From Octopus vulgaris (Eukaryota), in NCBI GenBank assembly GCA_951406725.2, contig OX597830.1:67704001-67768000 (forward strand): a stretch of DNA of 64,000 bases, in the 5' to 3' direction. Shown piece after piece: positions 8,194 through 56,520 of this stretch (positions are counted from its first letter, which is position 1; every line of letters begins with the position of its first letter). The translations under genes were made by a program, and so were the position numbers. The notes under the pieces were generated by a model. It searched no databases. It saw only the letters and a list, made by a program, of their open reading frames with translations, and was not told where the DNA came from.

Positions 8194-11412
<3,219 letters not shown>

Positions 11413-11705: not shown

Positions 11706-11708
<3 letters not shown>

Positions 11709-13870: not shown

Positions 13871-13897
13871 GTTTATTTATTTTTTCTCTCACCGACA

Positions 13898-17285: not shown

Positions 17286-17381
17286 CTATGGATGGAGGAG
17301 AGGAAAGAAAAGCTGCGGGGCCTTATAATTATAAAGCTGCGGGGCCTTGAGAATTATTTTCTCTTTCATTGAAATGAATGA

Positions 17382-32941: not shown

Positions 32942-32942
<1 letters not shown>

Positions 32943-33401
32943 TAGCATTAAAGACCCGTCGTTGCCGGGTCATAGTGCTAGTGCATGTATATTTGTGTAT
33001 ATATATGTGTACATATTACATGTACATCTATATATATACATCTACACATAAAATACAAAATACAAGGTTATATCTTGATATCGCTAGTGATAACAATACT
33101 CAAAATATATAACAGACTGGAATTGTTAGCCCGTCAATTGTATCTTGTCCTCCCTCTTGTATAGAAGTGTGGCTACAATCCAGCCTACCTCTACTTCTGG
33201 GGATGGGGGCATTTTAAATTTTTTTCCGGACGTCCTACATCCCAGATATAAAGGTAAAAATAAAATATTTCCACTTTGCAAGTTTGAGTCAAGTACTCCC
33301 TTGCACGCTCCGTTGACTCGAATCTTGCTTCTATTGTGGTGAATTTACCGCCTCTGATTAGATACCTTTCATAGTAGCACCAAGACACTTTTCGAAGGTG
33401 C
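32942..33401 (-). mobile_element. Helitron 3' end (left part of the element hosting the Tx1 cluster)
   Basis: Minus strand GACCCG-gcaacga-CGGGTC hairpin followed 7 nt later by CTAG|T, the canonical Helitron 3' terminus. Confidence 0.65.
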
Positions 33402-33658
33402 TTTCCTCCATGTTGTTTTATTATTACCCACAAGGGGCGAACACAGATGGGACAATACAATATGATGATGGGGTCAGACAAACGAATGGGTTTTTACAAT
33501 AAATCGAATTTAAAAATTTTCATGAATTACAATAAATGGACAGAAATCGATGATAGGACAGACCGGAAGACATTACGGGTGGAGTGGGTGCGGGTTTAGC
33601 TCGGACCCCACGAGCCCCGCCTCCCCACTGATACTTTTGGTTGCGCTTGGTATTACAT

Positions 33659-36600
33659 TTATGTTGTATCTTTCACTCGCAACTTTCGTGCTACATCCTT
33701 CCATCGTTCTTCATACACTCTCCTAGTCAGGCATATTCTCTCCAGCCCTATCTTCCTTTTCAGGTGAAAGATGAAATAATTCATCAAACCAGGGCCGGAG
33801 ATGAACTTGCCTGACTGTAAACCTTTCATTCTCGTCTTCCATATCACCTCTTTCGCGATTGCTACTACAACGAGAAAACGAAACTTACCTTCATTCACGA
33901 GGAAATCCGGTGGGTCAATTTTTGTAATCGACTCAGTCGACAGCTGTACTCTTCGTGTACCTGACAACAGCTGTTCGGCATAAACCCACACCTCAGACAC
34001 GTCCGGACAATGAACAATAGCGTGCGGGACGGTTTCCCTATCCCGCCCGCATCTTGGACATATCGGACTGTCTTGGCCACCGTGCCTTGCGAGTTTATCC
34101 CGAACAGGTAGAGCTCCTCTGTAGCATTGCCATGCCAGAGACTTCTGGAAGTTGTCCAGTGTCCTCGGCTCGAACGTACGTCGGAACAGACTGGCCAGCT
34201 GATTATCGTCGAGACCTAGGGTTTCCCCCAAGGTATCTTCACATTCCGCCTCTACCAACCCTCTATAGAAGAATGTGGTGGAACCCCCACCGCAGGCGTT
34301 GCCCGAGCGACGGAATAGCAGGAGAGCCTTGCGACACTCCGTGTACCAAGTACCAAGTTTCGATCTACGATTCAGCCAGGTTTCCCATCCACCGAAACTA
34401 GTGAACTTGGGAAACATCAGTTTTGCTAGCGAAGACCACACCCGTTCACCATCCAGGTAGAGCCACAGATGTCTTAACCTCAGCGCATGTCTGCGCATCA
34501 TCAGCCAAGGCATCCCTAGCCCACCCTTTAACGGTTGTTGACAGCAAGTAGAGCGTTTCACAAGTGGTTTCCCGCCCTTCCACAAGAAGTAGAAGAGCTG
34601 TCTTTCCAACTTGATCAACCACGAATCAGGGCAAGGAACGACGGAAAGGCGGTAGGTGATAACCGATGCGATAAACACATTGGCCACCTCCGCCCTCCCT
34701 TTCAGGGATAGCCACCGCCAAGACCAGGTCTTGGCTACTGCAGCCACCTTGCTCGTTACCTCGCCCCAATTCTTCTCTATTTGGAGGTCTGGACCGAACC
34801 AGACCCCTAGCAGTTTAATCGGACCCTCCGTCCAACGTCCCACGACGCTGTCAGGAGGCATCGACTTGCCTCTCCAGGTGCCGAGTTGCAAGCCGACTGA
34901 CTTTTCGCGATTAACTTTTGCTCCTGTCACCGTCTCGTACACCTCTATGGCCTTGCCTACTTTACATAGGTGGTCCATTTCGGTTACGATGATGGTGATG
35001 TCATCCGCGTACGCTGACACTGATTTTCCATTACCTGGCTGTCTCGGGATGCCGCTCAGTTTTCGCAGTAATGGCTCAAGAGCCATCACGTACAAAAGCG
35101 GGGAGAGCGGACACCCTTGACGAACCGAGCGTTTGATTTTGAACGGCTTCGACAAGAAGCCGTTCACCCGAACTACCGAGTCGATGTTATCATAAATTTC
35201 GATAATCCACCTGAGGAATCCAAGGCTCAGCCCGAACTGTGCCAGGGCAGATACCAGGTAACGATGGTCGACCCTATCAAAAGCTTTAGATTGGTCTAAA
35301 TGGACCAGTGCCCCACCCTTGCCAGAATCACTATTAAACCCCTCTATAGTGTACCGCATTAGATGGAGATTATCCTGAATGGATCTGCCCGGAACGGCAC
35401 ATGTCTGTGCCCCTCCGATCAGACCATCCGCGACACGCGCCAATCTTTTCGATAACACTTTGGCCAAAATCTTCAACTCTGTGTTTAGCAGAGTGATGGG
35501 CCTGAAATTATCAATGCACTCCCCCTTGCTCGGGTCCTTTCTGACGAGAGTCACTACTCCCCGGCGCACAGATCTGGGTATAAGCCCGTTCTGCTGCCAG
35601 TTCGCGTAGACCTCCGCCAGTAGGTGCCCGAACAAGTCTGGCATACTCTTATATAACTCATAGGGTAGACCATCCAAACCCGGCGCCTTGCCCGCGCCGC
35701 AGTCCGCCATTGCCTCAACCACCTCCTCAGGCGTGATTGGCCCTTCACAGCCCTCCGCATCTCGCCCCGATAAGCGCGGCAGACCGTCGAGTAGGTCCGT
35801 AAAGGCCCTCCTCCTATCCAGTCCGCCGCACTCACCGAAAAGCTGAGCGAAGTGCTCCTGAAAGGCCTCACACATCTCCTCGGGTTCGTTTATCAACTCA
35901 CCTTGTTGGTTCGTCAAAGATCGAATCGTGGCATCGTTACCATGCTGAGCTTCCACCACTCGGGCCCATCTCACGGCGTTGATTCCTTCACATCCCATAT
36001 GACGGATTCTAGCCCTGACAATGCAGCCCATGTGTTTGGCCTCGAGGTGCTGGTTTAACACCAGTCTCTTGGCCGCCACCTGAGCCGCAGAGCCAGTTTT
36101 CATGGCTTCCTCTAATTCCTTAACTAGAGTAGTTTCCCTTCTAGCCTCTCTAGCCACTACTCCTATGCTATATCTAATAGACTCAAACTTGATGGCTCGT
36201 TTGAGGGCGTACCACCATTTGTTATTAATGATGGTACCAGATAGTGCCCTCTGAATTATATTCCTAATCCGGTCTTTGTACTCCTTAATCGCCAAAAGGG
36301 ACGTATTAAGTTTCCAGTAACCGGATCCTCTATTTTTAACCTTATCTATGTCAAGCTTACAAGTGACCATTTTATGATCACTGTAGCTGATCGGGTAAAA
36401 CTGTGGACACTTAGCTATTTTACTGTCTACTTTTCTAATTAGTATTCTATCTAGATATGACCTGGAAGATCCGTCGCTGTTTGACCATGTCCACAATGGA
36501 GCGTTCGGAAATTCCAGCCTATAAGGATCTGCTAGCTCAAAGCGGCTTAGCAGTTCCATGAAGCCACTGTTGCCTTTTCTATCTGGACACGAGCCAACAT

Positions 36601-37054: not shown

Positions 37055-37068
37055 TACTTACCTTTATA

Positions 37069-38440
37069 TCAGTGGTTCGGTTTTTCTTCTTCTTCCTTCT
37101 CTTTTTCTGGGCCTCGTGGGGGAGTCTGACGTAGGCCCTCGAATATATGTGGAGATGTTACATCCAACCTAAGTGGGCCTACGTCATGGAAGAATTCTGA
37201 CTTTATCCGCCCGTAATCCTTCCGGTCTATTTTGTAAATTACAAAGTCATTTTTTTTCTCTACTTTCTTCACTTTGGCCATGGCTGCCAACACGTTTCCG
37301 AGTCTGCTATTTGATGCTTTTACGGCCATATATGAGTTCATTGACTCTTTTTTCTTTTTTAAAATTACTCTGGGAGGGGTGGTTTCCGTTTTTCTTTTTT
37401 TTTTCCGATAATTTTTGCCCACCCCTCCTCATTTATCTTTTCCTCGCTCTTTTTTTTCTCCGCCGCTGGTTCTGCTGTTACCATCACCTCCACACCTTCA
37501 GTCTTCCCTTCTGGGCCGTCTGACGCTGCTTCTGGTGACACATTGTCTTCTTTTTCTTTTGGCTTAGGTGCTTCCTGCGGTTTGGGTTGGGGCTGGCATT
37601 CCGCCCTTACATGCCCCTTCTTACCGCAGCCGAAGCACCTCGGCTTTCTGCCCTCTACGAAGACTGTGACTCTTTCATCTTCGCTTATCCTTAGAGTCTC
37701 TGGGATCTCTTCCAGGGTTTGTACTTCTGCTTGTATGGCTATTATTATCTTTTGCCCTTTCCAGAATTCTTCTTCTTCTACGGTGGCCTGGAGGATGTTT
37801 ATTTTTTCCTCCAGGCCTACCATAACTGCTGCCACTAGGACTTCGGCATCCGCTTCTGGCGGGATGTTGTTCATTGTGATCTTGGAAGTTCTCTTGCCTT
37901 TATACAGGGGTAGGAGAACAATATCCTCCGCTTTTATGGGTTCCATGGATAGCTTCTTGCTACCTCCTCTGACGTGAATCTCACCTCCACTGTGCCGTAT
38001 TTCTTCCCTCGATTGATATACGTAATTTTATCCATTATTGGCTTTAAGCAGTTTTCAATCTTTTTCTCCTCTATTTTTTGGATTGCTCTGTTTGTTATAC
38101 TGAATGTCTTATAGATTATTCTCCTATTCGAAATATCCTCCTGTATTTGGGCGTTTGAAGCCACGGTTACTTCCGTGCCCTCTTTTGACACACAGTCCGC
38201 ATGTTTTCCCAGGTTGTCCACGTTAATTTTTTTAATTTTCTTCCCAGCCACTTCAGCGAATTTTTTTGCTGGAGTTGATGCTGGTACTGGTTTTACCATT
38301 TTCTTGGGCGACGCCGCCTCTTTTTTCTTCGGCGACAGCGCCTCTTTTTTTCTTGGCGACAACGCCTCTTTTTTACTTGGCGACAACGCCGGGTATTCAT
38401 CCTCGCTCGTCACGGGCGAATAAGTGATGGGGGACTCCAT
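37069..38440 (-). CDS. Tx1 ORF1 (SPKK repeats, RRM-like region, CCHC knuckle) with two 1-bp frameshifts that may be sequencing errors
   Basis: Pieces 37934-38449, 37365-37946 and 37069-37422; KYGTVEVRF, VEGRKPRCFGCGKKGHVRAEC; breaks lie in short A runs. Confidence 0.8.
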
Positions 38441-38818
38441 CTTGAACAAATGGCTTTAACAAGCCTTTGGTAATCTAAATTAATTGTAGTTTTCCCCCAC
38501 TGAGGGGGGAACACCAACGCGAAGTCTTCGCGCGAAGGTTGACTTCGTCAGTTAGACAACAATGGACAAAAAAAGGTAGACCAACAGTATATAATAACAG
38601 AGATAAGTAGTATGAGAGCAAAAATATATATCAACTTACTAATAACGCAAAAAATTGATTTCCTCCATGTTATTTCTTTATTACCCACCAGGGGCTACGA
38701 AGAATGGCGGACATAACAAAACATGGGGGACATAGAACAATATGATTAAATTTATGAATGAAATGAAAATGAAAAAATGATAATATGAAAGCGATGCTAA
38801 CGGCCCCCTCCGCCAGCA

Positions 38819-40183
38819 TCACTTACCTGTCCTTTTGTTTTCACTGTCACCTGAATGTTCATTCCCAATACGAAGACCATCCATATCCATTCTTACTCCG
38901 AAACTGTCCTCCATATATTCCACGAATTCATCGCTCATTCTTGTATCTTTCACCTCCCAATTCTCCCTTTCACACCTCAACACAAACTCATCTATATTCT
39001 TCTTTTCCAGCACTGCATATCTGGTCCCATCCATTTCATACCATTCATACTCCTCCATTACCCTTTCAACCTCTTTCTGTTCAGTCACAATATAAATGTT
39101 CGGCCTGGGTTCGTTTTCAAACTCTTGTCTGTCTGTATTATTATTTTTCTTTTGTTTTCTTGTTGGAGGGGAGCGGGTGGGTTCACTGTCTGCAGGGGAA
39201 GGGTGGGATTCAGAGGGTGCGGGTGGTGTTGGGGTGGGTTGGGGCTTCGCACAGTTTTTCTTTTTCTTTCTTTTTCTCTTTTTTCTTCCTTCTTCCCACT
39301 CTTGTTGCATCTCCTCTTCTTCTGTCGTTTCTTTTTCCCTTTGGTTCTCTTTGGTTTCTTCCTCTTTTGGGGCTTCCGCGACGATTTCCTTTTCTTTTTC
39401 CTTTGGTGGGGGAGGGCAGTAGGCTCTTATGTGACCCCTCAGGCCACACTTGTAGCACCTGGGCGCCCTACCCTCCACCCACACTCTCATAATAATATTT
39501 CCAGTTTTTATACTGTCCGTAAGCTTTTCTATAACTTCCGCCTCCGTCTGTATGTTCATTACTAGTGTGGCACCTCTCACGCCTTCATATTTCATAATGG
39601 CGTGGAGGATGTCCACTTTATCTTCATTTCCTTTGATAACCGCAGCCGTTATTAATTCGCCCTCTAGGTGTGGAGGTATTCCTTCCACCCTAATTCTGGT
39701 GGTCCTTCTATTCAAATACGAGGGGAACAAGTAAAACTTTTCTGTACTCACCACCTTGGCTGCTATATTCCTGGCTGCTTTCTCACTTTTAAATTGTACC
39801 GTTATGGTTCCATATTCTAATCCTTTTGTCATGTACACAATTTCTTCTCCTGTCTGTTTGAAAGCCTCTTCAATTGCTTCCATGTTAATCACTTCCATTT
39901 TTCTACCTCCATTCATAAATACTTTATATTTAATGGTTCTACGATGGAACCAGTCTCCGCGCCCTGCTAGAGGCAACAGCTCAACCTCTCCGTTCTCCTC
40001 CTCCTTCATGAACTCCTGGAAGTCCGTCAACTTAGCCAGGTCTATCTCTTTTTCTGTTGACTTCTTCGTTATACCTGCGTAGGTACTTTCCATTTTTTTC
40101 ACCGCCAACTCCTCCTCAGATGTCGACGAATTTTCAGAGAAATTTCTCCCTTCCATCTCATCCGTTTGGTAGAGGCGGCTCAT
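38819..40183 (-). CDS. ORF1/gag-like CCHC protein of the divergent unit 0 (~454 aa, intact)
   Basis: Open frame; YGTITVQF, RIRVEGIPP, VEGRAPRCYKCGLRGHIRAYC; start taken at the ATG of MSRLYQ. Confidence 0.85.
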   Translation of the reverse strand: MSRLYQTDEMEGRNFSENSSTSEEELAVKKMESTYAGITKKSTEKEIDLAKLTDFQEFMKEEENGEVELLPLAGRGDWFHRRTIKYKVFMNGGRKMEVINMEAIEEAFKQTGEEIVYMTKGLEYGTITVQFKSEKAARNIAAKVVSTEKFYLFPSYLNRRTTRIRVEGIPPHLEGELITAAVIKGNEDKVDILHAIMKYEGVRGATLVMNIQTEAEVIEKLTDSIKTGNIIMRVWVEGRAPRCYKCGLRGHIRAYCPPPPKEKEKEIVAEAPKEEETKENQREKETTEEEEMQQEWEEGRKKRKRKKKKNCAKPQPTPTPPAPSESHPSPADSEPTRSPPTRKQKKNNNTDRQEFENEPRPNIYIVTEQKEVERVMEEYEWYEMDGTRYAVLEKKNIDEFVLRCERENWEVKDTRMSDEFVEYMEDSFGVRMDMDGLRIGNEHSGDSENKRTGK

Positions 40184-40500
40184 AGTCGCCTCAGACCGAA
40201 AAACGGCCTCCCGAACAGAAAACGTGCGACGCACAGAACCAGTGCGACGCGAAACCGCACCAACCGACGTTCCAATTCCGCAACCACAATTCACTTTTTG
40301 TTCTTTTTTCTTTTTTAACCGAATTTTACAGAGCGCAAAAAAACGCGTATTTCTTTATTACCCACTAAGGGGCTACGAAGAATGGCGGACATAACAAAAC
40401 ATGGGGACATAGAACATTATAATTAAACTTTATGAACATGAATTGTTAAACGAAAAAAATGATAAAATGAAAGCGATACCAACGGCCCCGTCCGTCAGCA

Positions 40501-41916
40501 TCACTTACCTGTCCTTTGTTTTTCATAGTCACTTGAATGTTCTTTGCCAATACGAATAAATTCCATATCCATTCTTACTCCGAAATACTCATCCATATTT
40601 TCCACGAATTCATCGCTCATTCTTATATCTTTCACCTCCCAATTCTCCCTTTCACACCTCCCCATAAACTCACCTATGTTCTTCTTTTCAATCACAGCAT
40701 ACCTAGTCTCTCCAACATCATACCATTTATACTCTTCCATTAGACTTTTAACTTCCTCTGTTCAGTCATAGTACAAATGTACGGCCTGGGTTCGATTTCA
40801 ATCTCTTGTGTGTGTGTATTCTTTTTTCTTTTGTTTTCTTGTTGGGGGGGAGCGGGTGGGTTCAATGTCTGCATGGATAGGGTGGGACTCAGAGGGTGTG
40901 GGAGGTTTTGGGGTAGATTGGAGTTCCATATTATTTTCTTTTTTTCCACATATTCTTCTCTTCCTCTTACTTCCAGCTTCCTTCCATTTCTGTGTATTCT
41001 CTTCCTCTGTTTCCTTCTCCTCTGGTTTCTGCTTCTCTCTCTCTGGTTCGGGATCCATTTCTTTCCCTGGGGGAGGGCAGAAGGCTCTTATGTGACCCCT
41101 CAGGCCACACTTGTAACAACGTGGAGCCCTGCCCTCCACCCACACTCTCATGATCACTTCTCCCAGTCTGATGCTTTCCGTCAGGTCCACCAGTACCTCG
41201 GTCTCTGCCTGTACGTTCAGCTCCACTGTTACGCCTCTCCAGCCCTCGGACTTAACCGAGGCATGGAGAATATCCACTTCGTCCTCGTGGCCGCTGATCA
41301 CAGCCGCCACAATCCATTCTGCCTCCACGTTTGGTGGCACTCCCTCCACCCTTATTCGTGTAATCCTCCTGTTTAAATACGTAGGTAACAGTGTTACCTT
41401 TTCCGACTTCACCGCCTTCGCTGCCATCTTCCTCGCTGCAGATTCACTTTTAAAGTGCACAACTACGGTCCCGTACTTGGATCCTCGAGTCAGAAAATTT
41501 ATTTCCTCCTCAGTTCTTCGCAGGGCTTCCTCTATCCATTCCATGGTTACAACTTCTACCCTCTTCCTTTCGTTTGCGAACACCCTGTAAACAATGGTCC
41601 TCTTATCATACCATTCTTTTCTCCTGGGTGTCGGTGATAGTTCCACCTCACCGCTTTCCTTTTTCATGTATTTCTGGTAACTTGGCAACTTGGCCATGTC
41701 GACCCCTTTCTCTTCCGCCTTCTTGGTTACACCGGCATAGGTATAACCCAGCTTCTCTTCCAATTCCCTTGCTGCCATTTCTAGCTCCTTCTCAGACGTA
41801 GGCAAGTCTGATAAAGACTCGAAAACTCCAGCCTTTTCTTCCATCAGCTTCATTGCAATTGCCTGTTCCAGTTCCTCATCTGTCGTGGACAAGTCTGTTA
41901 GAGACTCATAATCCAT
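40501..41916 (-). pseudogene. Unit 1 ORF1-like gene with small indels
   Basis: Fragments 40798-41916, 40740-40949 and 40501-40740 reconstruct the unit protein. Confidence 0.8.
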
Positions 41917-42231
41917 TTCCCTCTGTCTGACAGACCGAAAACGGCCGCCAAAACAGAAAAAGTGTAACGCGCTGAACGAGCGAAACGCGAAACCGCGTCA
42001 ACGCCGTTCAGAATTTCCACAACAACAACAACGCTTTTTGTTCTTTTTTACCGAATTTTCAGGAGCCGAAAAAACGCGTATTTCTTTATTACCCACTAAG
42101 GGGCTACGAAGAATGGCGGACATAACAAAACATGGGGACATAGAACATTATAATTAAACTTTATGAACATGAATTGTTAAACGAAAAAAATGATAAAATG
42201 AAAGCGATACCAACGGCCCCGTCCGTCAGCA

Positions 42232-43649
42232 TCACTTACCTGTCCTTTGTTTTTCATAGTCACTTGAATGTTCTTTGTCAATACGAATAAATTCCATATC
42301 CATTCTTACTCCGAAATACTCATCCATATTTTCCACGAATTCATCGCTCATTCTTATATCTTTCACCTCCCAATTCTCCCTTTCACACCTCCCCATAAAC
42401 TCACCTATGTTCTTCTTTTCAATCACAGCATACCTAGTCTCTCCAACATCATACCATTTATACTCTTCCATTAGACTTTTAACTTCTTTCTGTTCAGTCA
42501 TAGTACAAATGTACGGCCTGGGTTCGATTTCAATCTCTTGTGTGTGTGTATTCTTTTTTTTCTTTTGTTTTCTTGTTGGGGGGAGCGGGTGGGTTCAATG
42601 TCTGCATGGATAGGGTGGGACTCAGAGGGTGTGGGAGGTTTTGGGGTAGATTGGAGTTCCATATTATTTTCTTTTTTTCCACATATTCTTCTCTTCCTCT
42701 TACTTCCAGCTTCCTTCCATTTCTGTGTATTCTCTTCCTCTGTTTCCTTCTCCTCTGGTTTCTGCTTCTCTCTCTCTGGTTCGGGATCCATTTCTTTCCC
42801 TGGGGGAGGGCAGAAGGCTCTTATGTGACCCCTCAGGCCACACTTGTAACAACGTGGAGCCCTGCCCTCCACCCACACTCTCATGATCACTTCTCCCAGT
42901 CTGATGCTTTCCGTCAGGTCCACCAGTACCTCGGTCTCTGCCTGTACGTTCAGCTCCACTGTTACGCCTCTCCAGCCCTCGGACTTAACCGAGGCATGGA
43001 GAATATCCACTTCGTCCTCGTGGCCGCTGATCACAGCCGCCACAATCCATTCTGCCTCCACGTTTGGTGGCACTCCCTCCACCCTTATTCGTGTAATCCT
43101 CCTGTTTAAATACGTAGGTAACAGTGTTACCTTTTCCGACTTCACCGCCTTCGCTGCCATCTTCCTCGCTGCAGATTCACTTTTAAAGTGCACAACTACG
43201 GTCCCGTACTTGGATCCTCGAGTCAGAAAATTTATTTCCTCCTCAGTTCTTCGCAGGGCTTCCTCTATCCATTCCATGGTTACAACTTCTACCCTCTTCC
43301 TTTCGTTTGCGAACACCCTGTAAACAATGGTCCTCTTATCATACCATTCTTTTCTCCTGGGTGTCGGTGATAGTTCCACCTCACCGCTTTCCTTTTTCAT
43401 GTATTTCTGGTAACTTGGCAACTTGGCCATGTCGACCCCTTTCTCTTCCGCCTTCTTGGTTACACCGGCATAGGTATAACCCAGCTTCTCTTCCAATTTC
43501 CTTGCTGCCATTTCTAGCTCCTTCTCAGACGTAGGCAAGTCTGATAAAGACTCGAAAACTCCAGCCTTTTCCTCCATCAGCTTCACTGCAATTGCCTGTT
43601 CCAGTTCCTCATCCGTCGTGGACAAGTCTGTTAGAGACTCATAGTCCAT
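42232..43649 (-). pseudogene. Unit 2 ORF1-like gene, single indel in a G run
   Basis: Fragments 42498-43649 and 42232-42501. Confidence 0.8.
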
Positions 43650-43965
43650 TTCCTTCTGTCTGACAGACCGAAAACGGCCGCCAAAACAGAAAAAGTGTAA
43701 CGCGCTGAACGAGCGAAACGCGAAACCGCGTCAACGCCGTTCAGAATTTCCACAACAACAACAACGCTTTTTGTTCTTTTTTACCGAATTTTCAGGAGCG
43801 CAAAAAAACGCGTATTTCTTTATTACCCACTAAGGGGCTACGAAGAATGGCGGACATAACAAAACATGGGGACATAGAACATTATAATTAAACTATATGA
43901 ACATGAAGTGTTAAACGAAAAAAATGATAAAATGAAAGCGATACCAACGGCCCCGTCCGTCAGCA

Positions 43966-45380
43966 TCACTTACCTGTCCTTTGTTTTTCATAGTCACTTG
44001 AATGTTCTTTGCCAATACGAATAAATTCCATATCCATTCTTACTCCGAAATACTCATTCATATTTTCCACGAATTCATCGCTCATTCTTATATCTTTCAC
44101 CTCCCAATTCTCCCTTTCACACCTCCCCATAAACTCACCTATGTTCTTTTTTTCAATCACAGCATACCTAGTCTCTCCAACATCATACCGTTTATACTCT
44201 TCCATTAGACTTTTAACTTCCCTCTGTTCAGTCATAGTACAAATGTACGGCCTGGGTTCGATTTCAATCTCTTGTGTGTGTGTATTCTTTTTTTCTTTTG
44301 TTTTCTTGTTGGGGGGGAGCGGGTGGGTTCAATGTCTGCATGGATAGGGTGGGACTCAGAGGGTGTGGGAGGTTTTGGGGTAGATTGGAGTTCCATATTA
44401 TTTTCTTTTTTTCCACATATTCTTCTCTTCCTCTTACTTCCAGCTTCCTTCCATTTCTGTGTATTCTCTTCCTCTGTTTCCTTCTCCTCTGGTTTCTGCT
44501 TCTCTCTCTCTGGTTCGGGATCCATTTCTTTCCCTGGGGGAGGGCAGAAGGCTCTTATGTGACCCCTCAGGCCACACTTGTAACAACGTGGAGCCCTGCC
44601 CTCCACCCACACTCTCATGATCACTTCTCCCAGTCTGATGCTTTCCGTCAGGTCCACCAGTACCTCGGTCTCTGCCTGTACGTTCAGCTCCACTGTTACG
44701 CCTCTCCAGCCCTCGGACTTAACCGAGGCATGGAGAATATCCACTTCGTCCTCGTGGCCGCTGATCACAGCCGCCACAATCCATTCTGCCTCCACGTTTG
44801 GTGGCACTCCCTCCACCCTTATTCGTGTAATCCTCCTGTTTAAATACGTAGGTAACAGTGTTACCTTTTCCGACTTCACCGCCTTCGCTGCCATCTTCCT
44901 CGCTGCAGATTCACTTTTAAAGTGCACAACTACGGTCCCGTACTTGGATCCTCGAGTCAGAAAATTTATTTCCTCCTCAGTTCTTCGCAGGGCTTCCTCT
45001 ATCCATTCCATGGATACAACTTCTACCCTCTTCCTTTCGTTTGCGCACACCCTGTAAACAATGGTCCTCTTATCATACCATTCTTTTCTCCTGGGTGTCG
45101 GTGATAGTTCCACCTCACCGCTTTCCTTTTTCATGTATTTCTGGTAACTTGGCAACTTGGCCATGTCGACCCCTTTCTCTTCCGCCTTCTTGGTTACACC
45201 GGCATAGGTATAACCCAGCTTCTTCCAATTTCCTTGCTGCCATTTCTAGCTCCTTCTCAGACATAGGCAAGTCTGATAAAGACTCAAAAACTCCAGCCTT
45301 TTCCTCCATCAGCTTCACTGCAATTGCCTGTTCCAGTTCCTCATCCGTCGTGGACAAGTCTGTTAAGACTCATAGTCCAT
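43966..45380 (-). pseudogene. Unit 3 ORF1-like gene, several small indels
   Basis: Fragments 45115-45357, 44232-45164 and 43966-44235. Confidence 0.8.
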
Positions 45381-45695
45381 TTCCTTCTGTCTGACAGACC
45401 GAAAACGGCCGCCAAAACAGAAAAAGTGTAACGCGCTGAACGAGCGAAACGCGAAACCGCGTCAACGCCGTTCAGAATTTCCACAACAACAACAACCTTT
45501 TTGTTCTTTTTTACCGAATTTTCAGGAGCCGAAAAAAACGCGTATTTCTTTATTACCCACTAAGGGGCTACGAAGAGTGGCGGACATAACAAAACATGGG
45601 GACATAGAACATTATAATTAAACTTTATGAACATGAATTGTTAAACGAAAAAAATGATAAAATGAAAGCGATACCAACGGCCCCGTCCGTCAGCA

Positions 45696-47060
45696 TCACT
45701 TACCTGTCCTTTGTTTTTCATAGTCACTTGAATGTTCTTTGTCAATACGAATAAATTCCATATCCATTCTTACTCCGAAATACTCATCCATATTTTCCAC
45801 GAATTCATCGCTCATTCTTATATCTTTCACCTCCCAATTCTCCCTTTCACACCTCCCCATAAACTCACCTATGTTCTTCTTTTCAATCACAGCATACCTA
45901 GTCTCTCCAACATCATACCATTTATACTCTTCCATTAGACTTTTAACTTCTTTCTGTTCAGTCATAGTACAAATGTACGGCCTGGGTTCGATTTCAATCT
46001 CTTGTGTGTGTGTATTCTTTTTTTTCTTTTGTTTTCTTGTTGGGGGGGAGCGGGTGGGTTCAATGTCTGCATGGATAGGGTGGGACTCAGAGGGTGTGGG
46101 AGGTTTTGGGGTAGATTGGAGTTCCATATTATTTTCTTTTTTTCCACATATTCTTCTCTTCCTCTTACTTCCAGCTTCCTTCCATTTCTGTGTATTCTCT
46201 TCCTCTGTTTCCTTCTCCTCTGGTTTCTGCTTCTCTCTCTCTGGTTCGGGATCCATTTCTTTCCCTGGGGGAGGGCAGAAGGCTCTTATGTGACCCCTCA
46301 GGCCACACTTGTAACAACGTGGAGCCCTGCCCTCCACCCACACTCTCATGATCACTTCTCCCAGTCTGATGCTTTCCGTCAGGTCCACCAGTACCTCGGT
46401 CTCTGCCTGTACGTTCAGCTCCACTGTTACGCCTCTCCAGCCCTCGGACTTAACCGAGGCATGGAGAATATCCACTTCGTCCTCGTGGCCGCTGATCACA
46501 GCCGCCACAATCCATTCTGCCTCCACGTTTGGTGGCACTCCCTCCACCCTTATTCGTGTAATCCTCCTGTTTAAATACGTAGGTAACAGTGTTACCTTTT
46601 CCGACTTCACCGCCTTCGCTGCCATCTTCCTCGCTGCAGATTCACTTTTAAAGTGCACAACTACGGTCCCGTACTTGGATCCTCGAGTCAGAAAATTTAT
46701 TTCCTCCTCAGTTCTTCGCAGGGCTTCCTCTATCCATTCCATGGTTACAACTTCTACCCTCTTCCTTTCGTTTGCGAACACCCTGTAAACAATGGTCCTC
46801 TTATCATACCATTCTTTTCTCCTGGGTGTCGGTGATAGTTCCACCTCACCGCTTTCCTTTTTCATGTATTTCTGGTAACTTGGCAACTTGGCCATGTCGA
46901 CCCCCCTCTCCTCCGCCCTCCTGGTTACACCGGCATAGGTATAACCCAGCTTCTGATCCATTTTCCTCACTGCCATTTCTAGCTCCTCCTCAGACGTAGA
47001 CAAGTCTGTTAAAGACTCAAAAACTGCAGCCGTATCTCCCATCAGGTAGGGGTTGTCCAT
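45696..47060 (-). CDS. Unit 4 ORF1/gag-like protein, intact 454 aa, variant N-terminus
   Basis: Uninterrupted ORF; CYKCGLRGHIRAFC knuckle; one acidic N-terminal repeat instead of two. Confidence 0.9.
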   Translation of the reverse strand: MDNPYLMGDTAAVFESLTDLSTSEEELEMAVRKMDQKLGYTYAGVTRRAEERGVDMAKLPSYQKYMKKESGEVELSPTPRRKEWYDKRTIVYRVFANERKRVEVVTMEWIEEALRRTEEEINFLTRGSKYGTVVVHFKSESAARKMAAKAVKSEKVTLLPTYLNRRITRIRVEGVPPNVEAEWIVAAVISGHEDEVDILHASVKSEGWRGVTVELNVQAETEVLVDLTESIRLGEVIMRVWVEGRAPRCYKCGLRGHIRAFCPPPGKEMDPEPEREKQKPEEKETEEENTQKWKEAGSKRKRRICGKKENNMELQSTPKPPTPSESHPIHADIEPTRSPPTRKQKKKKNTHTQEIEIEPRPYICTMTEQKEVKSLMEEYKWYDVGETRYAVIEKKNIGEFMGRCERENWEVKDIRMSDEFVENMDEYFGVRMDMEFIRIDKEHSSDYEKQRTGK

Positions 47061-47393
47061 TTCCTTCTGTCTGACAGACCGAAAACGGCCGCCAAAACAG
47101 AAAAAGTGTAACGCGCTGAACGAGCGAAACGCGAAACCGCGTCAACGCCGTTCAGAATTTCCACAACAACAACAACGCTTTTTGTTCTTTTTTACCGAAT
47201 TTTCAGGAGCCGAAAAAAAACACGGAGCCGAAAAAACGCGTATTTCTTTATTACCCACTAAGGGGCTACGAAGAATGGCGGACATAACAAAACATGGGGA
47301 CATAGAACATTATAATTAAACTTTATGAACATGAATTGTTAAACGAAAAAAATGATAAAATGAAAGCGATACCAACGGCCCCGTCCGTCAGCA

Positions 47394-48810
47394 TCACTTA
47401 CCTGTCCTTTGTTTTTCATAGTCACTTGAATGTTCTTTGCCAATACGAATAAATTCCATATCCATTCTTACTCCGAAATACTCATTCATATTTTCCACGA
47501 ATTCATCGCTCATTCTTATATCTTTCACCTCCCAATTCTCCCTTTCACACCTCCCCATAAACTCACCTATGTTCTTCTTTTCAATCACAGCATACCTAGT
47601 CTCTCCAACATCATACCATTTATACTCTTCCATTAGACTTTTAACTTCCCTCTGTTCAGTCATAGTACAAATGTACGGCCTGGGTTCGATTTCAATCTCT
47701 TGTGTGTGTGTATTCTTTTTTTCTTTTGTTTTCTTGTTGGGGGGAGCGGGTGGGTTCAATGTCTGCATGGATAGGGTGGGACTCAGAGGGTGTGGGAGGT
47801 TTTGGGGTAGATTGGAGTTCCATATTATTTTCTTTTTTTCCACATATTCTTCTCTTCCTCTTACTTCCAGCTTCCTTCCATTTCTGTGTATTCTCTTCCT
47901 CTGTTTCCTTCTCCTCTGGTTTCTGCTTCTCTCTCTCTGGTTCGGGATCCATTTCTTTCCCTGGGGGAGGGCAGAAGGCTCTTATGTGACCCCTCAGGCC
48001 ACACTTGTAACAACGTGGAGCCCTGCCCTCCACCCACACTCTCATGATCACTTCTCCCAGTCTGATGCTTTCCGTCAGGTCCACCAGTACCTCGGTCTCT
48101 GCCTGTACGTTCAGCTCCACTGTTACGCCTCTCCAGCCCTCGGACTTAACCGAGGCATGGAGAATATCCACTTCGTCCTCGTGGCCGCTGATCACAGCCG
48201 CCACAATCCATTCTGCCTCCACGTTTGGTGGCACTCCCTCCACCCTTATTCGTGTAATCCTCCTGTTTAAATACGTAGGTAACAGTGTTACCTTTTCCGA
48301 CTTCACCGCCTTCGCTGCCATCTTCCTCGCTGCAGATTCACTTTTAAAGTGCACAACTACGGTCCCGTACTTGGATCCTCGAGTCAGAAAATTTATTTCC
48401 TCCTCAGTTCTTCGCAGGGCTTCCTCTATCCATTCCATGGTTACAACTTCTACCCTCTTCCTTTCGTTTGCGAACACCCTGTAAACAATGGTCCTCTTAT
48501 CATACCATTCTTTTCTCCTGGGTGTCGGTGATAGTTCCACCTCACCGCTTTCCTTTTTCATGTATTTCTGGTAACTTGGCAACTTGGCCATGTCGACCCC
48601 TTTCTCTTCCGCCTTCTTGGTTACACCGGCATAGGTATAACCCAGCTTCTCTTCCAATTCCCTTGCTGCCATTTCTAGCTCCTTCTCAGACGTAGGCAAG
48701 TCTGATAAAGACTCGAAAACTCCAGCCTTTTCCTCCATCAGCTTCACTGCAATTGCCTGTTCCAGTTCCTCATCCGTCGTGGACAAGTCTGTTAGAGACT
48801 CATAGTCCAT
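47394..48810 (-). pseudogene. Unit 5 ORF1-like gene, homopolymer indels
   Basis: Fragments 47692-48810 and 47394-47843. Confidence 0.8.
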
Positions 48811-49154
48811 TTCCTTCTGTCTGACAGACCGAAAACGGCCGCCAAAACAGAAAAAGTGTAACGCGCTGAACGAGCGAAACGCGAAACCGCGTCAACGCCG
48901 TTCAGAATTTCCACAACAACAACAACGCTTTTTGTTCTTTTTTACCGAATTTTCAGGAGCCGAAAAAAAACGACTGAGCAGAAAGCAGAAAGCAGTAAGG
49001 CTATTTCTTTATTACCCACTAAGGGGCTACGAAGAGTGCCTGACATAACAAAACATGGGGACATAGAACATTATAATTAAACTTTATGAACATGAAGTGT
49101 TAAACGAAAAAAATGATAAAATGAAAGCGATACCAACGGCCCCGTCCGTCAGCA

Positions 49155-50572
49155 TCACTTACCTGTCCTTTGTTTTTCATAGTCACTTGAATGTTCTTTG
49201 CCAATACGAATAAATTCCATATCCATTCTTACTCCGAAATACTCATTCATATTTTCCACGAATTCATCGCTCATTCTTATATCTTTCACCTCCCAATTCT
49301 CCCTTTCACACCTCCCCATAAACTCACCTATGTTCTTTTTTTCAATCACAGCATACCTAGTCTCTCCAACATCATACCGTTTATACTCTTCCATTAGACT
49401 TTTAACTTCCCTCTGTTCAGTCATAGTACAAATGTACGGCCTGGGTTCGATTTCAATCTCTTGTGTGTGTGTATTCTTTTTTTTCTTTTGTTTTCTTGTT
49501 GGGGGGGAGCGGGTGGGTTCAATGTCTGCATGGATAGGGTGGGACTCAGAGGGTGTGGGAGGTTTTGGGGTAGATTGGAGTTCCATATTATTTTCTTTTT
49601 TTCCACATATTCTTCTCTTCCTCTTACTTCCAGCTTCCTTCCATTTCTGTGTATTCTCTTCCTCTGTTTCCTTCTCCTCTGGTTTCTGCTTCTCTCTCTC
49701 TGGTTCGGGATCCATTTCTTTCCCTGGGGGAGGGCAGAAGGCTCTTATGTGACCCCTCAGGCCACACTTGTAACAACGTGGAGCCCTGCCCTCCACCCAC
49801 ACTCTCATGATCACTTCTCCCAGTCTGATGCTTTCCGTCAGGTCCACCAGTACCTCGGTCTCTGCCTGTACGTTCAGCTCCACTGTTACGCCTCTCCAGC
49901 CCTCGGACTTAACCGAGGCATGGAGAATATCCACTTCGTCCTCGTGGCCGCTGATCACAGCCGCCACAATCCATTCTGCCTCCACGTTTGGTGGCACTCC
50001 CTCCACCCTTATTCGTGTAATCCTCCTGTTTAAATACGTAGGTAACAGTGTTACCTTTTCCGACTTCACCGCCTTCGCTGCCATCTTCCTCGCTGCAGAT
50101 TCACTTTTAAAGTGCACAACTACGGTCCCGTACTTGGATCCTCGAGTCAGAAAATTTATTTCCTCCTCAGTTCTTCGCAGGGCTTCCTCTATCCATTCCA
50201 TGGTTACAACTTCTACCCTCTTCCTTTCGTTTGCGAACACCCTGTAAACAATGGTCCTCTTATCATACCATTCTTTTCTCCTGGGTGTCGGTGATAGTTC
50301 CACCTCACCGCTTTCCTTTTTCATGTATTTCTGGTAACTTGGCAACTTGGCCATGTCGACCCCTTTCTCTTCCGCCTTCTTGGTTACACCGGCATAGGTA
50401 TAACCCAGCTTCTTTCCAATTTCCTTGCTGCCATTTCTAGCTCCTTCTCAGACGTAGACAAGTCTGATAAAGACTCGAAAACTCCAGCCTTTTCCTCCAT
50501 CAGCTTCACTGCAATTGCCTGTTCCAGTTCCTCATCCGTCGTGGACAAGTCTGTTAGAGACTCATAGTCCAT
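49155..50572 (-). pseudogene. Unit 6 ORF1-like gene, one N-terminal indel, 399 aa open downstream
   Basis: Fragments 50384-50572 and 49155-50354. Confidence 0.8.
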
Positions 50573-50960
50573 TTCCTTCTGTCTGACAGACCGAAAACGG
50601 CCGCCAAAACAGAAAAAGTGTAACGCGCTGAACGAGCGAAACGCGAAACCGCGTCAACGCCGTTCAGAATTTCCACAACAACAACAACGCTTTTTGTTCT
50701 TTTTTACCGAATTTTCAGGAGCCGAAAAAACCGCGACCTTTTTTCCTCTACATTGTATACTTTATAGACAATAGTCTTTTCTTTTCTTTTATTTTTTATT
50801 ATCCATCTCTTTTTTTTATTACCCACTAAGGGGCTACGAAGAATGGCGGACATAACAAAACATGGGGACATAGAACATTATAATTAAACTTTATGAAAAT
50901 GAATTGTTAAACGAAAAAATGATAAAATGAAAGCGATACCAACGGCCCCGTCCGTCAGCA

Positions 50961-52370
50961 TCACTTACCTGTCCTTTGTTTTTCATAGTCACTTGAATGT
51001 TCTTTGCCAATACGAATAAATTCCATATCCATTCTTACTCCGAAATACTCATCCATATTTTCCACGAATTCATCGCTCATTCTTATATCTTTCACCTCCC
51101 AATTCTCCCTTTCACACCTCCCCATAAACTCACCTATGTTCTTCTTTTCAATCACAGCATACCTAGTCTCTCCAACATCATACCATTTATACTCTTCCAT
51201 TAGACTTTTAACTTCTTTCTGTTCAGTCATAGTACAAATGTACGGCCTGGGTTCGATTTCAATCTCTTGTGTGTGTGTATTCTTTTTTTTCTTTTGTTTT
51301 CTTGTTGGGGGGGAGCGGGTGGGTTCAATGTCTGCATGGATAGGGTGGGACTCAGAGGGTGTGGGAGGTTTTGGGGTAGATTGGAGTTCCATATTATTTT
51401 CTTTTTTTCCACATATTCTTCTCTTCCTCTTACTTCCAGCTTCCTTCCATTTCTGTGTATTCTCTTCCTCTGTTTCCTTCTCCTCTGGTTTCTGCTTCTC
51501 TCTCTCTGGTTCGGGATCCATTTCTTTCCCTGGGGGAGGGCAGAAGGCTCTTATGTGACCCCTCAGGCCACACTTGTAACAACGTGGAGCCCTGCCCTCC
51601 ACCCACACTCTCATGATCACTTCTCCCAGTCTGATGCTTTCCGTCAGGTCCACCAGTACCTCGGTCTCTGCCTGTACGTTCAGCTCCACTGTTACGCCTC
51701 TCCAGCCCTCGGACTTAACCGAGGCATGGAGAATATCCACTTCGTCCTCGTGGCCGCTGATCACAGCCGCCACAATCCATTCTGCCTCCACGTTTGGTGG
51801 CACTCCCTCCACCCTTATTCGTGTAATCCTCCTGTTTAAATACGTAGGTAACAGTGTTACCTTTTCCGACTTCACCGCCTTCGCTGCCATCTTCCTCGCT
51901 GCAGATTCACTTTTAAAGTGCACAACTACGGTCCCGTACTTGGATCCTCGAGTCAGAAAATTTATTTCCTCCTCAGTTCTTCGCAGGGCTTCCTCTATCC
52001 ATTCCATGGTTACAACTTCTACCCTCTTCCTTTCGTTTGCGAACACCCTGTAAACAATGGTCCTCTTATCATACCATTCTTTTCTCCTGGGTGTCGGTGA
52101 TAGTTCCACCTCACCGCTTTCCTTTTTCATGTATTTCTGGTAACTTGGCAACTTGGCCATGTCGACCCCTTTCTCTTCCGCCTTCTTGGTTACACCGGCA
52201 TAGGTATAACCCAGCTTCTTTCCAATTTTCCTTCACTGCCATTTCTAGCTCCTCCTCAGACGTAGCAAGTCTGATAAAGACTCAAAAACTCCAGCCTTTT
52301 CTCCATCAGCTTCATGCAATTGCCTGTTCCAGTTCCTCATCAGGAAAGTCTGTTAGGACTCATAGTCCAT
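50961..52370 (-). pseudogene. Unit 7 ORF1-like gene, garbled N-terminus, 399 aa open downstream
   Basis: ORF 50961-52160 plus an indel-rich 5' segment. Confidence 0.75.
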
Positions 52371-52681
52371 TTCCTTCTGTCTGACAGACCGAAAACGGCC
52401 GCCAAAACAGAAAAAGTGTAACGCGCTGAACGAGCGAAACGCGAAACCGCGTCAACGCCGTTCAGAATTTCCACAACAACAACAACGCTTTTTGTTCTTT
52501 TTACCGAATTTCAGGAGCCGAAAAAAGGGCACGTATTTTTTATTACCCACTAAGGGGCTACGAAGGCGGACATAACAAAACATGGGGACATAGAACATTA
52601 TAATTAAACTTTATGAACATGTATTGTTAAACGAAAAAAATGATAAAATGAAAGCGATACCAACGGCCCCGTCCGTCAGCA

Positions 52682-54089
52682 TCACTTACCTGTCCTTTGT
52701 TTTTCATAGTCACTTGAATGTTCTTTGCCAATACGAATAAATTCCATATCCATTCTTACTCCGAAATACTCATTCATATTTTCCACGAATTCATCGCTCA
52801 TTCTTATATCTTTCACCTCCCAATTCTCCCTTTCACACCTCCCCATAAACTCACCTATGTTCTTCTTTTCAATCACAGCATACCTAGTCTCTCCAACATC
52901 ATACCGTTTATACTCTTCCATTAGACTTTTAACTTCCCTCTGTTCAGTCATAGTACAAATGTACGGCCTGGGTTCGATTTCAATCTCTTGTGTGTGTGTA
53001 TTCTTTTTTTTCTTTTGTTTTCTTGTTGGGGGGAGCGGGTGGGTTCAATGTCTGCATGGATAGGGTGGGACTCAGAGGGTGTGGGAGGTTTTGGGGTAGA
53101 TTGGAGTTCCATATTATTTTCTTTTTTTCCACATATTCTTCTCTTCCTCTTACTTCCAGCTTCCTTCCATTTCTGTGTATTCTCTTCCTCTGTTTCCTTC
53201 TCCTCTGGTTTCTGCTTCTCTCTCTCTGGTTCGGGATCCATTTCTTTCCCTGGGGGAGGGCAGAAGGCTCTTATGTGACCCCTCAGGCCACACTTGTAAC
53301 AACGTGGAGCCCTGCCCTCCACCCACACTCTCATGATCACTTCTCCCAGTCTGATGCTTTCCGTCAGGTCCACCAGTACCTCGGTCTCTGCCTGTACGTT
53401 CAGCTCCACTGTTACGCCTCTCCAGCCCTCGGACTTAACCGAGGCATGGAGAATATCCACTTCGTCCTCGTGGCCGCTGATCACAGCCGCCACAATCCAT
53501 TCTGCCTCCACGTTTGGTGGCACTCCCTCCACCCTTATTCGTGTAATCCTCCTGTTTAAATACGTAGGTAACAGTGTTACCTTTTCCGACTTCACCGCCT
53601 TCGCTGCCATCTTCCTCGCTACAGATTCACTTTTAAAGTGCACAACTACGGTCCCGTACTTGGATCCTCGAGTCAGAAAATTTATTTCCTCCTCAGTTCT
53701 TCGCAGGGCTTCCTCTATCCATTCCATGGTTACAACTTCTACCCTCTTCCTTTCGTTTGCGAACACCCTGTAAACAATGGTCCTCTTATCATACCATTCT
53801 TTTCTCCTGGGTGTCGGTGATAGTTCCACCTCACCGCTTTCCTTTTTCATGTATTTCTGGTAACTTGGCAACTTGGCCATGTCGACCCCTTTCTCTTCCG
53901 CCTTCTTGGTTACACCGGCATAGGTATAACCCAGCTTCTGATCCATTTTCCTCACTGCTATTTCTAGCTCCTCCTCAGACGTAGACAAGTCTGATAAAGA
54001 CTCAAAACTCCAGCCTTTTCCTCCATCAGCTTCACTGCAATTGCCCGTTCCAGTTCCTCATCAGTCGTGGAAAGGGACTCATAGTCCAT
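52682..54089 (-). pseudogene. Unit 8 ORF1-like gene with indels and a hybrid N-terminus
   Basis: Fragments 52948-53988 and 52682-52951. Confidence 0.75.
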
Positions 54090-54404
54090 TTCCTTCTGTC
54101 TGACAGACCGAAAACGGCCGCCAAAACAGAAAAAGTGCAACGCGCTGAACGAGCGAAACGCGAAACCGCGTCAACGCCGTTCAGAATTTCCACAACAACA
54201 ACAACGCTTTTTGTTCTTTTTTACCGAATTTTCAGGAGCCGAAAAAACGCGTATTTCTTTATTACCCACTAAGGGGCTACGAAGAATGGCGGACATAACA
54301 AAACATGGGGACATAGAACATTATAATTAAACTATATGAACATGAAGTGTTAAACGAAAAAAATGATAAAATGAAAGCGATACCAACGGCCCCGTCCGTC
54401 AGCA

Positions 54405-55822
54405 TCACTTACCTGTCCTTTGTTTTTCATAGTCACTTGAATGTTCTTTGCCAATACGAATAAATTCCATATCCATTCTTACTCCGAAATACTCATTCAT
54501 ATTTTCCACGAATTCATCGCTCATTCTTATATCTTTCACCTCCCAATTCTCCCTTTCACACCTCCCCATAAACTCACCTATGTTCTTTTTTTCAATCACA
54601 GCATACCTAGTCTCTCCAACATCATACCGTTTATACTCTTCCATTAGACTTTTAACTTCCCTCTGTTCAGTCATAGTACAAATGTACGGCCTGGGTTCGA
54701 TTTCAATCTCTTGTGTGTGTGTATTCTTTTTTTTCTTTTGTTTTCTTGTTGGGGGGAGCGGGTGGGTTCAATGTCTGCATGGATAGGGTGGGACTCAGAG
54801 GGTGTGGGAGGTTTTGGGGTAGATTGGAGTTCCATATTATTTTCTTTTTTTCCACATATTCTTCTCTTCCTCTTACTTCCAGCTTCCTTCCATTTCTGTG
54901 TATTCTCTTCCTCTGTTTCCTTCTCCTCTGGTTTCTGCTTCTCTCTCTCTGGTTCGGGATCCATTTCTTTCCCTGGGGGAGGGCAGAAGGCTCTTATGTG
55001 ACCCCTCAGGCCACACTTGTAACAACGTGGAGCCCTGCCCTCCACCCACACTCTCATGATCACTTCTCCCAGTCTGATGCTTTCCGTCAGGTCCACCAGT
55101 ACCTCGGTCTCTGCCTGTACGTTCAGCTCCACTGTTACGCCTCTCCAGCCCTCGGACTTAACCGAGGCATGGAGAATATCCACTTCGTCCTCGTGGCCGC
55201 TGATCACAGCCGCCACAATCCATTCTGCCTCCACGTTTGGTGGCACTCCCTCCACCCTTATTCGTGTAATCCTCCTGTTTAAATACGTAGGTAACAGTGT
55301 TACCTTTTCCGACTTCACCGCCTTCGCTGCCATCTTCCTCGCTGCAGATTCACTTTTAAAGTGCACAACTACGGTCCCGTACTTGGATCCTCGAGTCAGA
55401 AAATTTATTTCCTCCTCAGTTCTTCGCAGGGCTTCCTCTATCCATTCCATGGATACAACTTCTACCCTCTTCCTTTCGTTTGCGCACACCCTGTAAACAA
55501 TGGTCCTCTTATCATACCATTCTTTTCTCCTGGGTGTCGGTGATAGTTCCACCTCACCGCTTTCCTTTTTCATGTATTTCTGGTAACTTGGCAACTTGGC
55601 CATGTCGACCCCTTTCTCTTCCGCCTTCTTGGTTACACCGGCATAGGTATAACTCAGCTTGTCTTCCAATTTCCTTGCTGCCATTTCTAGCTCCTTCTCA
55701 GACATAGGCAAGTCTGATAAAGACTCAAAAACTCCAGCCTTTTCCTCCATCAGCTTCACTGCAATTGCCTGTTCCAGTTCCTCATCCGTCGTGGACAAGT
55801 CTGTTAAAGACTCATAGTCCAT
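54405..55822 (-). pseudogene. Unit 9 ORF1-like gene, single indel in a G run
   Basis: Fragments 54671-55822 and 54405-54674. Confidence 0.8.
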
Positions 55823-56003
55823 TTCCTTCTGTCTGACAGACCGAAAACGGCCGCCAAAACAGAAAAAGTGTAACGCGCTGAACGAGCGAAACGCGAAACC
55901 GCGTCAACGCCGTTCAGAATTTCCACAACAACAACAACCTTTTTTGTTCTTTTTTACCGAATTTTCAGGAGCCGAAAAAAAAACACGGAGCCGAAAAAAC
56001 GCG

Positions 56004-56520
56004 ACCTTTCTCTACATTCTATACTTTATAGACAATAGTCTTTTCTTTAATTTAATTTTTTATTATCCATCTGGACTATTCCATTTCTGCACGTTAATTT
56101 TATTTTTAATTTATTCCCATTCATGTGAAACCAATTATTCAAGTTCAAATCATTGATGCAATTTTATACCAATTGCTATTTTTACTTTTGTTATGTTATG
56201 ATTATATTATACTTTAGTTTGATTTTAATTATTACTTACTACATATAATTCAATTGTTATTATTATTTTTATTGTTAAAGTGAAAGTATCTGACATAAAA
56301 TAGAGAAACGTTTTTGTTTCACTTTTAACACGTAATACTGAAATAGTGGAGAAGATATGATATTGCTATGGGCTCGCTCTAGGCAAGAAGTTGAACATTT
56401 CTTTTACCCATGAAACTACATGGACCCTAAGTAAGGCATGTGCAAAATTTGAATGAAATTGGTTGTGTAGTTCTCAAGTTTTAGGGAAACACACAGACAG
56501 ATAGACAGACAGACACATTG
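56004..56520 (-). mobile_element. Probable Helitron 5' portion (right part of the host element)
   Basis: Minus strand (GTCT)n followed by AACTACACAACCAATTTCATTCAAATTTTGCACATG, the usual layout near the 5' end of non-autonomous invertebrate Helitrons; the terminal TC is not visible. Confidence 0.5.

Follow-up and report, generated by a model that had tools for sequence, protein, structure and literature searches.

We analysed a window of 64,000 nt of the genome of Octopus vulgaris (assembly GCA_951406725.2, contig OX597830.1, positions 67,704,001 to 67,768,000), in which ten retroelement units that carry only the first open reading frame (ORF1) of a Tx1-type long interspersed nuclear element (LINE) stand head to tail beside a two-ORF LINE, Tx1B. 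The units belong to a dispersed lineage of ORF1-only elements, and the array and the LINE together occupy one site in a Helitron-like DNA transposon. The reading that we favour, with a probability of roughly 60%, is that units inserted at this site one after another, each copied in trans and joined to the 5′ end of the array some 30 nt downstream of a TATA box. An earlier interpretation, drawn from the letters of the window (the original prediction), had proposed that such elements borrow ORF2 from the neighbouring LINE and pile up in tandem; its old, dispersed ORF1-only lineage holds up, its choice of helper is probably not the right one, and the shared Helitron site and the stepwise growth had escaped it.

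Organization of the array and its host

The features of the array, its host and the neighbouring LINE are listed from 5′ to 3′ of the minus strand, marked (−); TSD is target-site duplication and UTR is untranslated region.

56007..56517 (−): 5′ half of the non-autonomous Helitron-like host, with (GTCT)n near its start, 94% identical to an empty copy; this copy lacks the first ~27 nt
56024..56030 (−): TATA-like box TATAAAG, lying in the decayed ORF1 scrap of the host and preceding the first unit by 27 nt
54252..56003 (−): U9, family A, ORF frameshifted
55987..56003 (−): head of U9, 17 nt, identical to the head of U8 (54235–54251); candidate hidden TSD
52534..54251 (−): U8, family A
50810..52533 (−): U7, family A
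50740..50808 (−): internal 69-bp copy of the host 5′ flank between U7 and U6, with its own TATA box (50766)
49002..50739 (−): U6, family A
47241..49001 (−): U5, family A; its 5′ extension recurs at a C2 locus (L216)
45543..47240 (−): U4, family A, intact 454-aa ORF1 at 45696–47060
43813..45542 (−): U3, family A
42079..43812 (−): U2, family A
40348..42078 (−): U1, family A
38671..40347 (−): U0, family B, intact 454-aa ORF1 (38819–40183), with two predicted RNA recognition motif (RRM)-like domains and a CCHC knuckle
38790..38822 (−): 3′ UTR hairpin with a GGGG loop, directly following the stop codon of ORF1 and conserved between families
38659..38670 (−): upstream copy of the 12-bp TSD ACATGGAGGAAA
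33414..38658 (−): Tx1B, two-ORF LINE of 5.25 kb, tail GCCCC..GTGGGTAATAA
38440–37934 and 37946–37365 (−): Tx1B ORF1, split by a frameshift near 37945
37054–33659 (−): Tx1B ORF2, intact, 1131 aa, endonuclease, reverse transcriptase (RT) and C-terminal zinc motif
32942..33413 (−): host 3′ half, with the downstream TSD copy, the remaining part of the decayed Tx1 ORF1 scrap, the hairpin GACCCG..CGGGTC and the CTAG end

The ten units run head to tail on the minus strand from 56003 to 38671, each 1.68–1.76 kb long, much as originally described, with one interruption by the 69-bp host piece at U7/U6, which is not identical to the outer host flank. U1–U9 form family A, with 7–40 substitutions between members (98–99.6% alike), and U0 is a member of family B with about 73% identity to them. 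The units have a CpG-rich 5′ UTR (CpG observed/expected 1.8) and a 3′ UTR of 150–160 nt that ends in the same GCCCC..GTGGGTAATAA tail as Tx1B, and neither RT nor endonuclease is encoded in any of the ten unit sequences. To this extent the proposed anatomy stands; the single full-length ORF ascribed to every unit is found unbroken (454 aa) only in U0 and U4 (2/10), the other eight reading 310–399 aa from ATG, so that the description of the array is partly confirmed. The break falls at a C/A homopolymer stretch in six units, and assembly error is therefore possible for some of the breaks.

Array and LINE are nested inside a Helitron-like repeat of about 1.05 kb, divided here into 56517–56007 and 33413–32942. 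In copies of this host, A precedes the 5′ TC in 25/28 cases and T follows the 3′ hairpin and CTAG in 38/39; termini and repeat match features given for non-autonomous Helitrons (PMC4344730; here and below, papers are cited from excerpts). The host contains a decayed scrap of a Tx1 ORF1 (tblastn E 2e-6), and the landing site GATTTGAAC/ACATGG lies within it: the landing pad is one site in a captured piece of Tx1 ORF1 inside a non-autonomous Helitron. Exact patterns detect 901 empty host sites and 51 host-to-unit junctions in the genome. Among 37 other family A loci (the 17 best BLAST loci plus 20 picked from 100 listed tails), 30 have the host on at least one side and two have short scraps of it only, and nearly every other array is bounded by the same flanks. 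The 30 best B copies, one of which is U0, join at ACAT in 29 cases, and eight of the 30 sit solo in the host. Occupied hosts are mostly of the ACATGG subtype (45/48 vs 12/30 empty hosts, p=3e-7). Family A units also land in a short interspersed nuclear element (SINE)-like repeat and at other sites (L215, L212, L205 and L210).

An old lineage that keeps ORF1 and lacks ORF2

The ORF1 of the units is homologous to that of both Tx1 elements in the window, and the shared motifs named in the original prediction hold. Amino acid identity to the ORF1 family of the neighbour is only 33–36%, with synonymous sites saturated, and families A, B and C fall together with eight older clusters in a clade with 100/99 support, which bears out the claim of a distinct lineage rather than a fresh deletion of the neighbour. 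No ORF2 follows the ORF1 core in any of 173 scorable cores (a sample rather than a census, with 34 cores unscored and overlapping loci counted twice), nor is one present in the 30 best B copies or in 20 older relatives, as expected of the non-autonomous Tx1-lineage element that had been proposed. These 20 relatives, at 58–85% identity, all have the same short 3′ UTR end and lie in other targets, and TSDs of 16–23 bp are found around older relatives. The ratio of non-synonymous to synonymous substitution rates (dN/dS) is 0.10–0.15 among close ORF1-only pairs (families B, C and E); for U0 against U4 (B vs A) the corresponding ratio of proportions, pN/pS, is 0.30, with pS saturated. Sequence comparison thus indicates an old ORF1 lineage under purifying selection. 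With a retained ORF1, no ORF2, dispersal and purifying selection, the units are an ORF1-present non-autonomous LINE.

Three further ORF1-only families (D, E and F) share arrays with these. A single clade of all ORF1-only families is neither shown nor rejected (approximately unbiased test, p-AU 0.51). A clade uniting the units' lineage with Tx1B was weakly rejected (p-AU 0.025), with long branches.

Protein-search matches to the ORF1 were all labelled Octopus vulgaris, and a sequence search of the PDB with it gave zinc knuckles as the sole matches. The core, which ends in a CCHC knuckle, was modelled with a predicted local distance difference test (pLDDT) score of 84, and the model matches RRM folds with Z-scores of up to 9.2 (root-mean-square deviation 2.4, 81 aligned); the product is a predicted RNA-binding protein. 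The GGGG-loop hairpin after the stop codon has 96.8% paired cells and two pairs with changes in both partners; hairpins like it are present in D, E, F, Tx1B and a further LINE family, Tx1C. Folding of the whole 3′ UTR was not better than that of shuffled sequences (z −1.3 to +1.1), which confines the support to the short hairpin.

Dispersal, independent insertion and an RNA intermediate

As had been anticipated, copies of the units are dispersed, and their loci are interstitial rather than telomeric (the position of the window is 67.7 Mb on a contig, C17, of 80.0 Mb). Exact patterns yield 123 A tails and 54 B-type ORF ends in the genome, a DNA search finds 17 other A loci, and independent insertions are present at many loci. 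At nine loci the B copies are 0.94% apart and their hosts 5.8% apart; 12 occupied and 30 empty hosts are intermixed in a tree, and for 53 of 62 A units the nearest relative lies at a different locus. The insertions are independent, into diverged hosts. Of the two outcomes named as fatal to the original prediction, restriction to this locus and an ORF2 behind every other copy of the ORF1, neither is observed.

Private changes of the copies are skewed to A>G on the sense strand (66 vs 18 T>C, p=7e-4) and are clustered, U4 having five within 17 nt (46905–46921). A 5′ G is found at 3/40 clustered A>G sites vs a background of 33%, and A>G clusters that avoid a 5′ G are what we take to be the ADAR pattern. 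Such editing-like clusters imply an RNA intermediate. Two older ORF1 copies (L165 and L172) carry many K/R/E-to-G changes, suggesting A>G hyper-editing.

Candidate sources of ORF2

Judging from the ends of the units, their copying was probably provided in trans by the ORF2 of an intact Tx1 element. The original prediction assigned this role to Tx1B, a Tx1-like LINE with the domains of that clade (APE endonuclease, RT, C-terminal zinc motif and an ORF1 with CCHC); one protein homologue, at 38% identity, is named 'Transposon TX1 uncharacterized 149 kDa protein', most matches being unnamed. The LINE had been called intact, which is correct for ORF2 and incorrect for the frameshifted ORF1. The exact Tx1B tail occurs 108 times in the genome; of the first 30, 23 join the host 3′ half, six join another member via a copy of the site and one is off target, a preference of 29/30 for the host site or its TSD copy. 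Since Tx1B has many copies that keep the full ORF2 frame, adjacency to one of them means little.

The ORF2 of the second intact family, Tx1C, is 72% identical to that of Tx1B. The 3′ UTRs of families A, B, C and D score 86–95 against Tx1C and 67–76 against Tx1B; this order is reversed for E and F, which carry the Tx1B tail, and E shares the 12-bp TSD of Tx1B. Tx1C has TSDs of 16–18 bp (7/19 examined), a length that matches the TSDs of the units better than does that of Tx1B. One intact Tx1C (446 + 1128 aa) sits in the Helitron host; its head is of the unit type, and it is docked onto a unit of family C. The neighbour, one of about 100 copies, thus loses its special claim, and the tails and TSDs point, by a modest balance, to Tx1C as the more probable helper. 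Against Tx1C stand its rarity in the Helitron (1/30 loci) and the use by Tx1B of exactly the nick of family B, two points that also count against our preferred account.

Probable growth of the array at its 5′ end

Doubled heads are seen in 36 of 102 units, mostly by 17–20 nt. Neighbours share a head prefix and motif in 19/56 pairs vs 7.0 after shuffling (0 of 2000), three of these 19 pairs coming from one locally duplicated run, and locus-private heads are common to different families within one array. Heads doubled over a TSD length and shared between neighbours argue for hidden TSDs, produced by stepwise insertion at the 5′ end of a resident. An early reading in which units insert without TSDs was dropped given the TSDs of Tx1C and the doubled heads, and overwriting of the target by RNA ends found little support (1/15 B sites).

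TATA-like boxes lie 27–36 nt upstream of 8/13 TSD-defined sites of Tx1C and older copies, most of them at −29 to −32, against a background of 11.7%, in a small, post hoc test whose window was set after the sites had been seen and in which 2/13 sites do not represent new insertions of this family. At the Tx1C sites the figure is 5/7, and the TATAAAG of the host lies 25–32 nt before the first unit at 27 host-head junctions.

On the preferred reading of stacked insertions, unit RNA would be coated by its own ORF1 protein (ORF1p) and its 3′ tail recognized by a Tx1 ORF2 protein. First entrants (B, one A sub-lineage, Tx1B and E/F) would land at AC/ACATGG, and later A copies at the 5′ end of a resident, duplicating its first ~17 nt, so that the TSD would hide within similar unit heads. 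The TATA box would stay upstream, regenerating the site, and the chain would grow 5′-ward.

Several observations weigh against this reading, beyond the size and timing of the TATA test. Five of the 37 A loci lie outside the host. Among the neighbour pairs, 24/56 lack even a shared head motif, including U1/U0 and U2/U1, and no trend of age with position in the array is seen (rho −0.03, n=60). The nick at the naked site is 36–39 nt from the TATA box, not about 30, and solo B copies either have lost 8 bp of the target or are bluntly joined without a TSD. Local duplication also occurs in some family C arrays, which are near-identical runs (0.06–0.6%).

Alternative explanations

With the same parasites and host site, whole arrays could have arisen in one event, either through end-to-end template jumping or because multimeric read-through RNA was reverse transcribed. 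Junctions with variable 5′ truncations and with 5′ extensions derived from donors would fit such an event, as would the flat age profile, and template jumping has been cited for the 5′ extensions of SINEU elements (PMC4494074). However, private heads cross family boundaries within one array, doubled heads have the length of a TSD, B stands upstream of another unit in just 1/30 cases, and the Tx1B and E members bounded by TSDs represent insertions of their own; we regard a one-event origin as improbable. Amplification at the DNA level, either of a tandem-duplicated deletion derivative or of Helitron cargo, is far less probable again. It could draw on the near-identical family C runs and on the five of nine A units of the window whose nearest relative lies in the same array, although never in the adjacent unit. 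Against it stand the mixture of families within arrays, the strand bias of the A>G clusters, and hosts six times more diverged than their inserts. The low ORF1 identity to the neighbour, together with dispersal, rules out a single-locus tandem deletion derivative, and the divergence of hosts over inserts and the intermixing of occupied and empty hosts rule out Helitron cargo; with the host tree and the solo B copies, DNA-level amplification is already largely refuted.

A different alternative concerns the target: the Tx1B endonuclease would recognize AC/ACATGG, the ends of read-through RNA would pair with the target, and TATA would have no role. A copies that dock on residents and A copies at the naked site belong to different sub-lineages, each of which would keep landing where its master sits; landing type is lineage-linked (19/22 vs 2/46 at linked sites), and ORF1 differences between the landing types are mostly silent or conservative. 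The ACATGG bias of the occupied hosts favours the same view, and R1Bm is reported to require downstream target sequence (PMC7265360). Left unexplained are the TATA boxes about 31 nt upstream of unrelated Tx1C sites and the match of the unit tail to Tx1C. As a replacement for stacked, TATA-spaced insertion we consider sequence-set targeting unlikely, if less so than a one-event origin; it can act together with the preferred mechanism.

Relation to known systems

ORF1-present non-autonomous LINEs include HAL1 (L1), Ag-Sponge (CR1) and HeT-A (Jockey) (PMC5786205, PMC5753468). These likewise keep ORF1 and both ends, lack ORF2 and are presumed to move in trans; the octopus units differ in being Tx1-like (a lineage unlisted in the excerpts of those two papers), site-directed and represented by several coexisting families. 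The HeT-A, TART and TAHRE system of Drosophila, with its ORF1-only telomeric Jockeys, shares mixed head-to-tail arrays, inferred 5′ growth and the emergence of further ORF1-only families from ORF1-only lineages (PMC13534243). The octopus arrays, unlike these, are interstitial, present at dozens of loci, inside another transposon and associated with TSDs; given this non-telomeric location the units are not HeT-A.

A LINE and its dependant that share a site in a DNA transposon, with tandem insertions, are known from Tx1L in Tx1D (Xenopus) and from Tx1-Mar/SINEU-3 in Mariner-N4_AMi (PMC4494074). In octopus, by contrast, the dependants are protein-coding, a Helitron-like element serves as host, the shared site falls within a captured Tx1 ORF1 scrap and chains reach ten or more. 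In Dictyostelium, TRE5-A.2 keeps ORF1, has lost ORF2 and is mobilized in trans by TRE5-A.1 (PMC3159450), as may be the case here. Landing at a fixed distance, set for TRE5-A by a transcription complex that ORF1p binds, is a possible further likeness (PMC3159450). TRE5-A.2 is, however, a direct deletion of its helper with Pol III targets, whereas the octopus lineage is old and distinct and its suspected anchor is a TATA box. The host resembles Hel-2-type non-autonomous Helitrons as described, with 5′ TC, 3′ hairpin and CTAG, insertion between A and T, and (CTGT)n near the 5′ end (PMC4344730).

The separate pieces are thus known from HAL1, HeT-A, TRE5-A.2 and Tx1-Mar/SINEU, and the combination is apparently undescribed: we found no paper on it in the literature searched, although Repbase/Dfam, Bao & Jurka 2010 or Anzai 2005 may hold the families. 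Excerpts of a 2026 paper on octopus repeats report 13 recently active L1-Tx1 families and no such system, and its supplement or transposable element library may hold them (PMC13282606).

The octopus units extend ORF1-only LINEs to a Tx1-like lineage and show that chains of the HeT-A kind also exist outside telomeres. The system is young, with copies about 1% apart and a large number of intact helpers, and brings two questions within reach of a test: what advantage a parasite has from keeping ORF1, and whether the target is chosen by ORF1 or RNA ends rather than by the endonuclease alone. A broader proposal, which we hold tentatively and at less than even odds, is that this LINE lineage lands at RNA polymerase II start sites about 30 nt behind TATA, and that the ORF1p or RNA ends of ORF1-only parasites steer a loosely targeted helper to the TATA-bearing Helitron, giving self-regenerating pads and telomere-like chains across the genome. 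If true, a constant spacing between TATA box and landing point would amount to a new rule of targeting and might serve as an insertion tool. Edited copies would record octopus adenosine-to-inosine editing in germline-transmitted transposon RNA.

Further observations on Tx1B and the window

A splice-donor-like AG/GTAAG(T) at the end of ORF1 overlaps the stop codon (38822–38827, 37057–37062 and other families); in two-ORF elements it also overlaps the ORF2 start, and the ORF1-only lineage of the units keeps TGATG. Contigs of four runs (presumed RNA) cover parts of Tx1B and U0 and contain no GTAAGT splice joint, which is uninformative either way. Tx1B-type ORF2 is found with several 5′ UTR-ORF1 modules (99, 86, 81 and 69% identity; regions C3a, C3b and C18, L243–L256), which may reflect repeated swaps of the 5′ module. 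At least four two-ORF relatives of Tx1B stand in tandem in a different, non-Helitron target (L243–L245, G000:C30:10424000-10453999).

Elsewhere in the window, a MITE-like (miniature inverted-repeat transposable element) inverted repeat of 128 bp (98%) occupies 11706–11833 and 11980–12107, and the second, decayed Tx1 lies just downstream of it at about 12150–17330. Three related copies of an RT-coding LINE, presumably of another clade and each embedded in (TA)n, are found at 861–2291, 3939–6737 and 8893–10773, and a 62-bp tandem repeat at 61796–62187 adjoins an RT fragment.

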